Origin: a virus
Direction: 5' to 3' (one strand)
Length of the DNA stretch: 16,424 nucleotides
UHGV virus genome: UHGV-0409449
Below are positions 11,479-16,424 of the stretch, one piece after another; the first letter of the stretch is position 1; each line of letters starts with the position of its first letter. The notes under the pieces were generated by a model, which was not told where the DNA came from, did not search any database, and saw only the letters and a list, made by a program, of their open reading frames with translations. The position numbers and the translations under genes are program-made.

Positions 11479-12081
11479 TTAATTTCCTGCTTTCAGTTGC
11501 TTAAGACGACGTTTAAGTTCGCCATTCCGTGCCTTTTCGTTATTGAGTCGGCCCGTCTCCTTATCCAGCTTCGCCCGCAAATCAGTGATCTGCTGTTGAT
11601 TGAAAGACACCGAATTCTGCGCGGACTTATAAGCGGCAACCACCTGAGCATTCCGCTGTTTTGCTTCTTGCAGGCGCTGAAAGTTGGATTTAACTGCCGG
11701 TTTCTTGTCTACCGGATTGGCAACACGCTTCGCTTTGGCGATCAGTGATTTCTGGAATTTTGCGGAGTTTTTGCGGGCCGCCTGTCCCATGACGGTACCA
11801 AGCGTCTTGATATCCGGCGACTGAGCGTTAGGAATAGCTTTTCCATTCAGTTTCACAGACGATATATCGCCAGTATCGTTTACCTGTATGGCAAGAATTT
11901 GTCCGTCGTTAAGAACCAGCTTTGCGGTTTTAACTTTAACGCCATCTTTCGTTGTTGCGCGGTTGCTGGAGTCAACCTCAATTACCGTAACACCGGTTTT
12001 ATTGATCGCCGCGATAAGGGATTTCAGCCCCTTTTCATTAACCTGGTCAAAATCGACCGTTGCATACTTATTTTTCGTCAT
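11479..12081 (-). CDS. hdf: Hdf-like protein (homolog of DarA fragment)
   Basis: 200 aa from the ATG at 12081, which has AGGA about 8 nt upstream; the ORF-track start at 12090 has no spacing to the AGGA. Overlaps the lydB 3' end. Shares KNSAKFQ and a following Lys/Gln-rich coiled coil with the DarA-like protein. Confidence 0.68.
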   Translation of the reverse strand: MTKNKYATVDFDQVNEKGLKSLIAAINKTGVTVIEVDSSNRATTKDGVKVKTAKLVLNDGQILAIQVNDTGDISSVKLNGKAIPNAQSPDIKTLGTVMGQAARKNSAKFQKSLIAKAKRVANPVDKKPAVKSNFQRLQEAKQRNAQVVAAYKSAQNSVSFNQQQITDLRAKLDKETGRLNNEKARNGELKRRLKQLKAGN

Positions 12082-12511
12082 CTGACACATCCTGTGCGAG
12101 ATTTATTACGTAACTTCTGCGGATTTTCTGAGTAACAGGGAAAATCCGATACAACGGGTTAATGAACGAGTCGCCATGCGTAACCATGACGTTGAAATGC
12201 CACAGTCGCTCTCCTTTACCCATATATTCAGTGGGTATGTACAACCATTCACTGTTTTCGCCCTGTTCAGCCGACGTCAGACAACGTTGTTCGCCTTCAA
12301 TCACTGTCGTTGGCTTCTGAACATCGCGGATCCAATATCTGACCGTTGCGCCGCGCAAAAACGGGAATTTAGACCGGTATTTGAACGGCACCCGGATGAA
12401 GCCCTGTTTAATTTCCACATCACCAAGTTCTAAATGCGTGATGTCCTTGCGTTTTAGCAAATAGCGATCGGCTAAGGCTAACGCAAGAACGCATACACCC
12501 CAGCCAATCAT
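12068..12511 (-). CDS. lydB: Antiholin-like protein (P1 LydB-like)
   Basis: 147 aa. ATG at 12511-12509 overlaps the lydA stop (ATGA), with GGAGG 8 nt upstream. N-terminal hydrophobic segment, then a soluble domain. Assigned by position after the holin-like gene and by recalled P1 order. Confidence 0.55.
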   Translation of the reverse strand: MIGWGVCVLALALADRYLLKRKDITHLELGDVEIKQGFIRVPFKYRSKFPFLRGATVRYWIRDVQKPTTVIEGEQRCLTSAEQGENSEWLYIPTEYMGKGERLWHFNVMVTHGDSFINPLYRIFPVTQKIRRSYVINLAQDVSDDEK

Positions 12512-13186: not shown

Positions 13187-13312
13187 AACTATTTCCTTAA
13201 TGGTTAAATAAACATCATTGGGAAACGGTATGTACTTTGTGATTTCCACACACACTGGTTTTGTTAATTAAAATCCGCAGCTTGCTATAAATAACGATAG
13301 TGAGCAGAAAAT

Positions 13313-13873
13313 ATGCTAATAGGCTATGTACGTGTATCAACAAATGAACAAAACACTGCTTTACAACGAAACGCTCTTGAAAGCGCAGGATGTGAGCTAA
13401 TTTTTGAGGACAAGGCGAGCGGCAAAAAGGCTGAGCGCCCTGGGTTAAAAAAGGTACTCCGTATGCTTTCCAGAGGTGATACCCTGGTCGTATGGAAGTT
13501 AGACCGTCTTGGGCGCAGCATGCGTCACTTAGTTGTGCTGGTGGAAGAGCTGCGTGACAGAGGCATTAACTTCCGGAGTCTCACTGACTCCATCGACACC
13601 AGTACACCAATGGGGCGCTTTTTCTTTCACGTAATGGGTGCGCTGGCAGAAATGGAACGTGAGCTTATCGTTGAACGTACACGCGCTGGACTTGATGCAG
13701 CTCGCGCAGAAGGTCGTATAGGTGGGCGTCGGCCTAAATACCAAGAAGAAACATGGCAGCAAATGCGGCGATTGCTGGAGAAGGGTATCCCCCGTAAGCA
13801 GGTTGCAATCATCTATGATGTGGCTGTTTCCACGCTTTATAAGAAGTTTCCGGCGTCATCATTTCAATCCTAA
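13313..13873 (+). CDS. cin: Serine recombinase, site-specific DNA invertase of the Cin/Gin/Pin/Hin family
   Basis: 186 aa. N-terminus MLIGYVRVSTNEQNTALQRNALE carries the catalytic Ser, and the sequence runs through the diagnostic core (GDTLVVWKLDRLGRSMRHL...FRSLTDSIDTSTPMGRFFFHVMGALAEMERELIVERT...GRIGGRRPK) to a C-terminal HTH (IPRKQVAIIYDVAVSTLYKK). Essentially the Cin sequence as I recall it. Confidence 0.92.
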   Translation: MLIGYVRVSTNEQNTALQRNALESAGCELIFEDKASGKKAERPGLKKVLRMLSRGDTLVVWKLDRLGRSMRHLVVLVEELRDRGINFRSLTDSIDTSTPMGRFFFHVMGALAEMERELIVERTRAGLDAARAEGRIGGRRPKYQEETWQQMRRLLEKGIPRKQVAIIYDVAVSTLYKKFPASSFQS

Positions 13874-13890
13874 ACCTTGGTTTAAGAGAA
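13865..13890. other. cix-type crossover site for the invertase (26 bp, imperfect dyad)
   Basis: CAATCCTAAACC-TT-GGTTTAAGAGAA: two 12-bp half-sites matching at 8 of 12 positions when the right half is reverse-complemented (TTCTCTTAAACC), around a 2-bp core at 13877-13878. This is the Hin/Gin/Cin crossover-site architecture with the AAACC..GGTTT core. The cin stop codon (13871-13873) lies inside the left half-site. It is the only such site in the window. Confidence 0.75.
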
Positions 13891-15420
13891 CTCGGTACCA
13901 GCGGTGAAAAGATCCCCCTGTTGAGCACGGCTAACACATGGAGTGCACGCCAGACTTTCAACGGCGGGATCACCGGGGCGCTGACAGGGAATGCCGACAC
14001 CGCGACGAAATTGAAAACAGCGCGGAAGATTAACAACGTTTCATTTGACGGTTCGGCAGATATTTCTTTAACAGCCTCGGATGTCGAAGCATTGTCACTG
14101 GAGGATGCCAGGAAGATTATTCAACCGCTGCCAGATGTGTGGATACCGTTTAATGATTCACTGGATATGATTGCGGGCTTTTCTCCATCATATAAAAAGA
14201 TTGTTATTGGCGACGACGAAATAACAATGCCTGGCGACAAGGTTGTTAAGTTTAAACGCGCATCGAAAGCAACCTATATAAATAAATCTGGTGTGCTGAC
14301 AGAGGCTGCCATTGACGAGCCACGATTTGAACGTGATGGCCTGCTTATTGAGGGACAACGAACAAACTACATGCTCAATTCGGAAAACCCTGCCAGTTGG
14401 GGGCGATCGTCAAATATGGATGTTCCCGAAACCGGGACGGATAGTTTTGGTTTTACCTATGGAAAGTTTGTCTGTAACGATTCTCTGATTGGGCAAACAT
14501 CAGCCATTAATATGGCATCAATTGCTGCTACAAAGTCAGTTGATGTTTCAGGCGATAACAAGTACGTGACAACCTCATGTCGTTTTAAAACAGAACGACA
14601 GGTAAGGTTGCGTATCCGCTTTGATAAATATGACGGTAGTGCAACAACTTTTCTTGGTGATGCATATATTGATACACAAACGCTTGAAATTAATATGACA
14701 GGTGGCGCGGCATCAAGGATTACAGCGAGAGTCAGAAAGGACGAAGCTACTGGATGGATTTTTGCAGAGGCAACAATCCAGGCAATTGATGATGAGTTAA
14801 AAATAGGATCTCAGATACAGTATTCTCCTAAGCAGGGCGGAGCAACCGTATCTGGAGACTATATTTATCTGTCTACCCCTCAAGTTGAGGATGGTTCTTG
14901 TGCATCATCTTTTATTATCTCAGGAACGACGGCGGCTACCCGCGCAAGCGATATAGTTACAGTTCCAATTAATAATAATCTTTATAATCTTCCTTTTACG
15001 GTTCTTTGTGAGGTACATAAGAACTGGTATAAAACGCCAAATGCAGCGCCACGTGTTTTTGATACCAGCGGTCATCAAACCGGAGCGGCTATTATTCTTG
15101 GGTTCGGATCTTCGGCAGATGGGCCAGACGGATTTCCTTATTGCGATATTGGAGGAGCTAACAGACGGGTAAACGAAAACGCATCGCTTGAAAAAATGGT
15201 TATGGGGATGCGTGTAAAATCAGATCAGTCTACGTGCTCAGTAAGTAACGGGCGCATATCCAGCGAAAAAAAGACTACGTGGTCCTATATTCAGAACTCT
15301 GCAACCATCCGTATTGGAGGCCAGACTACAGCAGGGTTACGTCATTTATTTGGTCATATCAGGAATTTCAGAATATGGCATAAAGCATTAACAGACCAAC
15401 AAATGGCTGAGGTTATTTAA
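13879..15420 (+). CDS. Tail-fibre variable C-terminal cassette (Sv-prime-like) with no initiation signals of its own; LamG-like tip domain
   Basis: Frame is open from 13843 across the cix site with no ATG and no RBS; the listed start at 13921 is a TTG. Carries the conserved tail-fibre hinge motif GNADTATKLKTARKINNVSFDGSADISL. C-terminus LFGHIRNFRIWHKALTDQQMAEVI resembles the terminal strand motif of Laminin_G_3 / concanavalin-like jellyroll domains. Expression would require inversion-mediated fusion to a constant 5' part located outside the window. Confidence 0.7.
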   Translation, partial: GLRELGTSGEKIPLLSTANTWSARQTFNGGITGALTGNADTATKLKTARKINNVSFDGSADISLTASDVEALSLEDARKIIQPLPDVWIPFNDSLDMIAGFSPSYKKIVIGDDEITMPGDKVVKFKRASKATYINKSGVLTEAAIDEPRFERDGLLIEGQRTNYMLNSENPASWGRSSNMDVPETGTDSFGFTYGKFVCNDSLIGQTSAINMASIAATKSVDVSGDNKYVTTSCRFKTERQVRLRIRFDKYDGSATTFLGDAYIDTQTLEINMTGGAASRITARVRKDEATGWIFAEATIQAIDDELKIGSQIQYSPKQGGATVSGDYIYLSTPQVEDGSCASSFIISGTTAATRASDIVTVPINNNLYNLPFTVLCEVHKNWYKTPNAAPRVFDTSGHQTGAAIILGFGSSADGPDGFPYCDIGGANRRVNENASLEKMVMGMRVKSDQSTCSVSNGRISSEKKTTWSYIQNSATIRIGGQTTAGLRHLFGHIRNFRIWHKALTDQQMAEVI

Positions 15421-15698
15421 TGAAAGATATTACGTTGAAATTCAGAGACAGGGAAGAATACGACTCTTTTTTAGAGAGTATATCCTGGCACGATAATGAA
15501 GAACTGCAAAACAACATCCTTCTTGATGTTGTAGGTATTACATATACCGAAATACCAAACGGCGAGAACGAAGAACCAACAGTGATTAAAAATGATGGCT
15601 TCTTCGTTAATGTTCGTATTTTAAACAACAGTTTGAAACAACAAATGTTTGATGGTTTTGAAGTTCAATTAGAACAACCGCTGCGGGAATGGGCGTAA
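15420..15698 (+). CDS. Small protein translationally coupled to the tail-fibre cassette (possible fibre chaperone/assembly factor)
   Basis: ATG overlaps the upstream stop (TAATG) with GAGG 7 nt upstream. 92 aa, acidic. Does not resemble Tfa/U-type assembly proteins that I know. Confidence 0.4.
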   Translation: MKDITLKFRDREEYDSFLESISWHDNEELQNNILLDVVGITYTEIPNGENEEPTVIKNDGFFVNVRILNNSLKQQMFDGFEVQLEQPLREWA

Positions 15699-15707
15699 GG
15701 AATTAAT

Positions 15708-16424
15708 ATGGCAACAGTGACAACGATACCAGCAGATATAACTAATCTGAAAAAAGAAATCGACTCTATTAAGAGTGATGTTGCTAAAAAACTGGAAAGT
15801 TCAGGCGGCACAATAACTGGTGATCTAACAGTTGTTGGTGGCATTTCTGGTGAGCTGTCCGGCAATGCCTCAACGGCTACAAAGCTGAAAACCGCGAGAA
15901 AGATTAATTCCGTTTCGTTTGATGGTTCAAAAGACATTAACCTCACGCCTCAAGATATTGATGCATTGCCAATAACCGGAGGAACTCTTACCGGCGGTTT
16001 AACGGTTGATGGTGAGATTGTCTCCAAGTCAGGAAATGGCTTCCGCATCGTACAGGGTGACTATGGATTCTTTATCCGAAACGATGGTTCAAGCACATAC
16101 TTCATGTTGACCAATTCGGGCGACAGCCTGGGAACATGGAATAGTTTAAGGCCGCTTACCATTAACAACGCCAATGGTGCTGTTTCAATCGGTAATGGTT
16201 TAACTGTTAATGGTTCTGTTGGTCTGGGTACTGCAAATGCTCTTGGTGGTAACTCTATCGTCCTTGGCGATAATGATACTGGTTTTAAACAGAATGGTGA
16301 TGGCATTCTTGATGTTTACGCTAATGGTCAGCGAGTATTCCGCTTTCAGAATGATGCGGCTTTTTCTTTAAAAAAATTGCTGGCCGGAGATAGTAAAACT
16401 TTTTCACTATCAAGTTCTAACACA
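15708..16424 (+). CDS. Tail-fibre-like protein with its own start, 3'-partial (runs off window)
   Basis: ATG at 15708 with AAGGAA 5 nt upstream. Open frame of 239 codons to the window edge, not in the ORF track because no stop lies in-window. Has the same hinge motif (GNASTATKLKTARKINSVSFDGSKDINL) about 50 aa from the N-terminus, followed by Gly/Asn/Thr-rich beta-rich fibre-like sequence. Confidence 0.7.
   Translation, partial: MATVTTIPADITNLKKEIDSIKSDVAKKLESSGGTITGDLTVVGGISGELSGNASTATKLKTARKINSVSFDGSKDINLTPQDIDALPITGGTLTGGLTVDGEIVSKSGNGFRIVQGDYGFFIRNDGSSTYFMLTNSGDSLGTWNSLRPLTINNANGAVSIGNGLTVNGSVGLGTANALGGNSIVLGDNDTGFKQNGDGILDVYANGQRVFRFQNDAAFSLKKLLAGDSKTFSLSSSNT

Follow-up and report, generated by a model that had tools for sequence, protein, structure and literature searches.

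A very probable cixL crossover site at the end of cin in a P1-type phage-plasmid sequence, with a tentative nested cassette in its tail-fibre segment

Inversion by the serine recombinases of the Hin/Gin/Cin family depends on Fis and on supercoiling and proceeds by rotation of recombinase subunits; this mechanism is well established. The literature on phage P1 has covered the crossover site, its overlap with the stop codon of cin, the enhancer and the host-range switch since the 1980s. The Gin/gix system of the Mu G segment and the Pin/pix system of the e14 P segment belong to the same recombinase family and use sites of the same 12+2+12 layout, with half-sites of the form TTNTCNNAAACC. Like the locus described here, they swap tail-fibre 3' ends together with chaperones, and their invertase genes carry conserved enhancer blocks in the 5' end. 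We read gix from the Mu record as TTATCCAAAACC TC GGTTTACAGGAA, and pix from the e14 record as CTCTCGAAAACC TT GGTTTGGGAGAA and TTCTCCCAAACC AA CGTTTATGAAAA. The core of gix is TC/GA, whereas cix and pix have TT/AA. A second difference lies in the position of the invertase gene: gin and pin point away from the site, starting 55 bp outside it, whereas cin of P1, and of the DNA studied here, reads in and ends inside the site.

Two further systems are relevant. Sandmeier, Iida and Arber reportedly described in 1992 a multiple-inversion system, Min/mix, with six crossover sites in p15B. The plasmid is related to P1, and there is more than one invertible unit in its tail-fibre region. In the 1980s, Iida and Hiestand-Nauer are said to have identified quasi-cix sites (cixQ, cixPp) that Cin uses at low frequency.

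The crossover site, its invertase and the enhancer

The window analyzed here is a stretch of viral DNA of 16,424 nucleotides (UHGV-0409449). It is collinear with IncY phage-plasmids of the P1 type, matching Salmonella pCFSAN058545_02 best (99.0%), and 125 plasmid records covered at least 80% of the window. Upstream of cin lie homologues of ddrB, ddrA, darA, hdf, lydB, lydA and lydC in the same order as in P1, and Sv' follows downstream, again as in P1. In a megablast search with the right-hand 3.4 kb, phage P1 matched with 97.3% identity over the first 1,022 bases.

The original prediction placed a crossover site at 13865-13890 and took it to mark the edge of an invertible tail-fibre segment. 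The letters there are CAATCCTAAACC TT GGTTTAAGAGAA, in which the first 12 bp form the outer (cin-side) half-site and the last 12 bp the inner one; the half-sites are complementary at 8 of 12 positions and surround the 2-bp core TT. A three-way alignment of the window with P1 and P7, together with a scripted scan at the annotated cixL positions, showed that this 26-mer is base for base the same as the "recombination site cixL" annotated in NC_005856 (P1) and NC_050152 (P7). Allowing up to three mismatches, it matched once in the window and in none of 200 shuffles. We also built a half-site matrix from the eight half-sites of the P1, Mu and e14 sites in the annotated records. With this matrix the proven cix, gix and pix sites score 28-32 bits; the site at 13865-13890 falls inside this range with 29.8 bits and is the best 26-mer in the window, the runner-up scoring 10.9 bits. 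With a probability of about 95%, we take it to be cixL, which together with a second crossover site makes up the Cin/cix inversion switch of a P1-type phage-plasmid. The site as such is already known, being annotated in the reference records of P1 and P7.

The annotation of P1 could be carried over in detail. NC_005856 has cin, the enhancer, a Cin-binding feature, cixL and the crossover at aligned positions, and P7 is annotated alike. The P1 crossover site within cixL, between nucleotides 32224 and 32225, is given there as the left boundary of the C segment and maps by offset to 13877/13878. The central dinucleotide of the window (13877-13878) is thus the strand-exchange point and the left boundary of the invertible segment on the mapped annotation. 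The Cin protein-binding feature of P1 maps to 13864-13894, using the offset from the scripted scan. The role as segment edge is upheld by this mapping and by the identity with cixL of P1 and P7. The prediction also had the dyad begin inside the last codons of cin and its core lie 4 nt past the stop; the coordinates agree, the core at 13877-78 beginning at the fourth nucleotide. That only one site is present in the window held for canonical sites: no second strong cix site was found in the window, which extends 2.5 kb beyond the core on the right. It did not hold for weaker sequences, as the runner-up, at 16072-16097, is relevant in relatives and is taken up below.

The only long ORF that ends at the site is cin itself, a gene for a serine DNA invertase of 186 aa (13313-13873, plus strand) that reads towards the invertible segment. 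Since the ORF ends at 13873, cixL starts at the penultimate codon of cin and the stop lies inside the left half-site; the codons concerned are CAA (Gln, 13865-67), TCC (Ser, 13868-70) and TAA (13871-73). The protein is identical to P1 Cin at 186 of 186 residues. It has the N-terminal resolvase catalytic domain and the C-terminal helix-turn-helix of a small serine recombinase (Pfam Resolvase, 4.6e-51; HTH_7, 1.9e-18), and it matched the Gin structure 3UJ3 over residues 1-182 (E = 8.6e-89).

A divergent P1-type invertase of 190 aa is encoded by pEC361_3 (NZ_AP027414.1, gene at 6300-6872 and site at 6852-6877 of the extracted locus). Its outer half-site is CAATCTCAAACG, and the stop that overlaps cixL has been lost; the gene continues for four codons over the core and ends at a TAA of the inner half-site. 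Because the gene crosses the crossover core, its last codons come from the invertible segment. The double constraint that had been proposed for the left half-site, as coding sequence and as recombinase binding site, is therefore real, but looser than implied, as an invertase without the overlapping stop exists.

At the other end of the gene, P1 has a weak cix-like sequence upstream of cin, TTTCCACACATA CT GGTTTTTGTTAA (6.0 bits), at the place that corresponds to 13243-13268 of the window; we take it to be the quasi-site cixPp. It overlaps the predicted -35 element of the cin promoter. The window differs from P1 there by a 1-bp deletion and a substitution, which weaken the cix-like match.

A recombinational enhancer was expected near the 5' end of the invertase gene but had not been found by eye. 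A scan with the degenerate Fis consensus (GNNNRNNWNNYNNNC) was of no help either, giving 128 matches against 125 expected, and was thus uninformative. Homology to P1 did place the enhancer (sis): the "enhancer of Cin-mediated C-segment inversion" of P1 (31678-31749) corresponds to 13331-13402, inside the 5' end of cin and in the same position as in P1 and P7. The two sequences are identical at 71 of 72 positions, and the single difference, at 13333, is synonymous. When the 5' ends of cin, gin, pin and the divergent invertase gene of pEC361_3 were aligned, two blocks were nearly invariant (13334-13347 and 13381-13396), with centers about 49 bp apart. Presumably these match the two Fis sites of the Hin and Gin enhancers. 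The window carries a sequence homologue of the P1 enhancer at 13331-13402, to which Fis is predicted to bind.

With these components, a Cin dimer would bind each 26-bp site and, on supercoiled DNA, both sites would meet at the Fis-bound enhancer about 0.5 kb away in the 5' end of cin. Cin would then cut both strands at the central dinucleotide (13877-78), half of the complex would rotate by 180 degrees and the ends would be rejoined, flipping the stretch between cixL and its inverted partner, cixR. The partner of the window's cixL should lie beyond the window end, about 6.1 kb to the right of cixL. In the state represented by the window, Sv' abuts the end of cin and would be silent; inversion would fuse it in frame to the constant 5' part of S, giving the fibre a different receptor-binding end and thereby changing the host range. 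The S/S' background in P1 and its host-range consequence are given in bioRxiv 10.1101/2022.07.24.501295.

The invertible segment and its partner site in relatives

The segment begins with the left arm of an inverted repeat (13867-14024), which is also the conserved start of the variable tail-fibre part. This arm aligned, reversed, to the cixR-proximal arm of relatives with 95.6-97.5% identity over 158 nt. Sv', the 3' portion of the tail-fibre gene S, occupies 13878-15420 on the plus strand. Its frame is open from 13843 and runs across cixL, with no start codon of its own at the site. In NZ_CP123334.1, where the segment is flipped, the same frame is fused in frame to the constant 5' part: 511 of 515 residues of Sv' are identical to residues 454-968, the C-terminus, of the 967-aa S protein. 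Because the flipped form has Sv' as the C-terminus of an intact S, Sv' of the window is a silent cassette, and judging from these sequences it would be expressed only after inversion had fused it to Sc.

The cargo of the segment differs from that of P1. Homology to P1 Sv' stops near 14021, about 145 bp inside the segment, and beyond this point another fibre module takes its place: 14021-15420 matches tail-fibre genes of Escherichia phages HannyBb, Tritos and 2G7b with about 93% identity. Given this switch in likeness, phage types have apparently exchanged a fibre module. Sv' is followed by a predicted 92-aa ORF (15420-15698, plus strand) that had no Pfam match; the assembly collection contained the exact 92-aa protein in 184 blocks. 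Next comes a second fibre gene, which has an ATG of its own at 15708 and runs off the window end, leaving its 5' part (15708-16424, plus strand). In relatives its product is a protein of 365 aa with Pfam Gp34_trimer, annotated as a phage tail fiber protein (WP_236926552.1), and genes for Caudo_TAP chaperones are found in both halves of the segment. The cin-proximal half in relatives thus has four ORFs (Sv', 92-aa, 365-aa fibre and chaperone) where P1 has two, and the segment measures 6.1 kb in relatives compared to 4.2 kb in P1.

Some other sequences bear on the segment and its cargo. In the IMG/VR loci (L047-L124), GGTTTAAGAGAA and the conserved fibre sequence after it were joined to at least 17 different outer 12-mers, several of them unlike half-sites; from these junctions, the inner half-site of cix appears to be a common junction for fibre-module exchange. 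The same Sv'/92-aa/second-fibre/chaperone module was found in NZ_CP173594.1, an unrelated phage-plasmid of 47.8 kb (loci L006 and L012). Its fibre gene contains a cixR-like site, TTATCCAGTACC TT GGTTTAAGAGAA, which is an orphan or fossil crossover site, and the whole record has no annotated invertase. Inside the 92-aa ORF of the window a third weak dyad, GTATTTTAAACA AC AGTTTGAAACAA (15616-15641), scored 6.8 bits and is probably due to chance.

The prediction that the DNA to the right of cixL inverts, up to a partner beyond the window, was followed up in relatives. An exact 41-mer from the window end had no match in IMG/VR or in GTDB representative genomes. NZ_AP029607.1 is 98.7% identical to the window's right end and has the same orientation; 6.1 kb past its cixL, inside the tail-fibre gene S, lies the inverted sequence TTCTCTTAAACC AA GGTATTGGATAA, which is cixR of P1. 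The closest complete relatives likewise have cixR 6.1 kb to the right of cixL, inverted and with the core AA/TT, and it is intact in the four closest relatives of the same arrangement (NZ_AP029607.1, NZ_CP077708.1, ERZ21878089 and GCA_014470655.1).

A look-up of the exact 92-aa protein gave ten further contigs, and among the relatives compared, the cin-joined and the Sc-joined orientations were each seen several times. The segment is joined to cin in NZ_AP029607.1 and ERZ21878089 and to Sc in NZ_CP123334.1 and GCA_014327865.1; between plasmids of opposite orientation the segment is 99.5-99.8% identical and the flanks 99.8-99.96%. NZ_CP123334.1 has the same 6.1-kb segment at 99.5% identity, with the flanks inverted relative to it, and the near-isogenic pair ERZ21878089 and CP123334.1 shows opposite orientations with 99.79-99.96% identity in the flanks and 99.76% in the segment. 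These observations run against a single fixed orientation and against the lack of a partner within several kb, and they agree with inversion of the DNA to the right of cixL as predicted.

The position of the exchange could be narrowed by comparing ERZ21878089 with GCA_014327865.1. SNPs in the repeat arms, from site position 32 inwards, go with the segment, and the bases that distinguish the half-sites at positions 1, 2, 7 and 9 go with the flank. This confines the exchange to a 22-nt interval that contains the core. Such an interval is what site-specific exchange at cix predicts, unlike homologous recombination over the 158-nt repeat. Both the two orientations and the location of the exchange are comparative evidence from near-isogenic plasmids, that is, from molecules other than that of the window.

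Might the site of the window be a relic, its partner lost or damaged and the segment frozen? Degenerate relatives do exist. GCA_034319715.1 and GCA_054503125.1 (L038 and L041) have lost cin and cixL and kept cixR, while locus L040 has a hybrid site instead of cixR (see below). Phage-plasmids of 48 kb carry a cixR-like site in a fibre gene and no annotated invertase, and P1-like plasmids with truncated cin or altered C segments have been reported (PMC6906374). Here, however, cin, the enhancer and cixL are all intact, Cin and the site are identical to those of P1, and the four closest relatives of the same arrangement keep an intact cixR. On both counts we consider an orphan site quite improbable. 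A dyad of this kind, an imperfect inverted repeat right at a stop codon, could also form a transcription terminator of cin or some other RNA hairpin. Yet no terminator-like site was called there, the 2-nt center bars a full hairpin and no run of T follows the dyad. The RNA fold is also poor (-4.4 kcal/mol, z-score +0.35), 120 of 200 shuffles folding at least as well. We rejected this identity of the dyad as scarcely credible and retain cixL as the reading of the site.

In the two relatives without cin and cixL (L038 and L041), Sv' is fused to Sc, and the lyd genes come after a short, different region. With both cin and cixL gone, the switch in these two is frozen in the Sv'-expressing state.

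A weak inner site and inversion of a 2.5-kb cassette

The runner-up in the matrix scan, a weak cix-like site that we call q (16072-16097), is a candidate secondary crossover site on the basis of its matrix score and of its behaviour in relatives. It reads TTATCCGAAACG AT GGTTCAAGCACA and lies inside a conserved box (16060-16214). With 10.9 bits it is second-best in the window but consists of one good half-site and an inner half of -0.2 bits, and at this score 0.17 matches are expected per window by chance. It is nevertheless identical to cixR at 18 of 26 positions and is read in the same frame (TT ATC CGA AAC GAT GGT in q, TT ATC CAA TAC CTT GGT in cixR). Relatives have two inverted copies of q within the C segment, for example at 12070-12095 and 14609-14634 of locus L003. 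The copies sit in a 155-bp inverted repeat of 99-100% identity, each at 12 bp from the outer end. On the outer side, the sequences flanking this repeat agree at only about 70%, and on the inner side they are unrelated tip sequences. Across 10 arms there was no variable position at q or from -12 to +27, and about 11 in the rest of the conserved box.

The stretch between the two q sites was found in both orientations. ERZ21878089 and GCA_014470655.1 have four mismatches in a flank of 16 kb, and the 2,539 bp between their q cores are inverted, with a single base of difference. NZ_CP123334.1 and NZ_CP098912.1 share backbone (98%), Cin protein and outer orientation, and their 2.5-kb inter-q cassette is inverted. 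The latter pair is about 2% diverged from the clade of ERZ21878089 and GCA_014470655.1, and because of the divergences between the two pairs at least two independent inner inversions must have occurred. All four combinations of outer and inner states were seen among relatives. The inner cassette carries two receptor-binding tips and two chaperone genes. Because the arms are identical in the informative pair, the inner crossover is not mappable by SNPs. A second tip pair, tried as a test of inner inversion, gave matches of only about 93% identity and is not clean evidence.

One locus has a site that combines q with cixR. In GCA_019138875.1 (ABBDII010000021.1; L040, 12048-12073) the sequence is TTATCCAATACC TT GGTTCAAGCACA, with its outer half from cixR and its inner half from q. 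To one side of the junction the DNA is identical to the Sc flank, and to the other side it is identical to the q box; the switch point lies within 5 nt next to the core, and the parents have no other homology. An assembly artefact is unlikely with an exact match of only 5 nt between the parents. About 1.4 kb is missing from the locus, and the S protein of 673 aa that results is in frame. The hybrid is the signature that would be expected if Cin had recombined q with cixR, and the event looks like a Cin-mediated deletion between directly repeated sites. This is the only hybrid among 164 loci. No further hybrid of either kind (cix-outer/q-inner or q-outer/cix-inner) was found in IMG/VR, none of 5,426 complete E. 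coli genomes had a match across the junction, and a chimeric q-outer/cix-inner peptide, searched against proteins, matched only fragments that correspond to one half.

These observations raise the possibility of a nested, four-state switch in which Cin flips the 2.5-kb inner cassette through the pair of q sites in addition to the outer segment, an extension of the cixL/cixR explanation. Crossover sites in the lineage of the window may then number four, not two. In its favor are the likeness and shared frame of q and cixR, the inverted pair in relatives, the recurrent inversion of the cassette with all four combinations present, the hybrid with its in-frame product, and the invariance of q and its immediate surroundings. 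Against it stands the strength of the site: 10.9 bits as opposed to the 28-32 bits of proven sites, at a score that is reached by chance 0.17 times per window. The 155-bp repeat around q is near-perfect, so RecA could invert the cassette by itself. We had regarded the place of q at the outer edge of this repeat as an argument for Cin, but dropped it since the repeat reaches 132 bp outside q in another P1-type contig. The q peptide motif is, moreover, conserved in other phages with different codons, and the hybrid is a single case, with no counterpart in IMG/VR, in complete E. coli genomes or, for the q-outer/cix-inner form, among proteins. On balance, we hold the nested switch as a tentative reading, with odds somewhat short of even.

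The described systems offer partial parallels to a nested switch. p15B, with its Min/mix system, is a precedent for a possible nested cassette in a tail-fibre region. A p15B-type arrangement would have more than two full-strength sites of the same core, whereas each relative here has two sites above 28 bits, with the next at 10.9 bits; the inner candidate sites, in contrast to those of p15B, are weak, have a palindromic AT core and lie inside the 155-bp repeat. The quasi-cix sites resemble q in being weak matches to cix with essentially one good half-site, and when they recombine with a true cix the hybrid is joined at the core, as it is in L040. The quasi-sites of the laboratory are fortuitous, however, whereas q is in frame at a junction of fibre-gene modules, forms an inverted pair and leaves intact genes in every configuration.

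Consequences for annotation and for P1-type elements

The identification of cixL as such adds nothing new, and its practical value is one of annotation. Because cixL is the left edge of an invertible segment, assemblies of such plasmids may legitimately differ in orientation, and the gene that adjoins cin should be read as a silent cassette and not as a pseudogene.

The inner cassette would have wider consequences. If the nested switch is true, an inner flip would shift two tips, along with the chaperones that belong to them, between the long fibre (Sc-B-tip) and the separate second fibre protein (A-tip). Even then, Min of p15B would be the precedent for multiple inversions in a P1-related plasmid. 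Nested inversion, if confirmed, would mean that natural P1-type elements have doubled their receptor-binding configurations by means of weak secondary sites, and would bear on host-range prediction and on P1-based delivery vectors.
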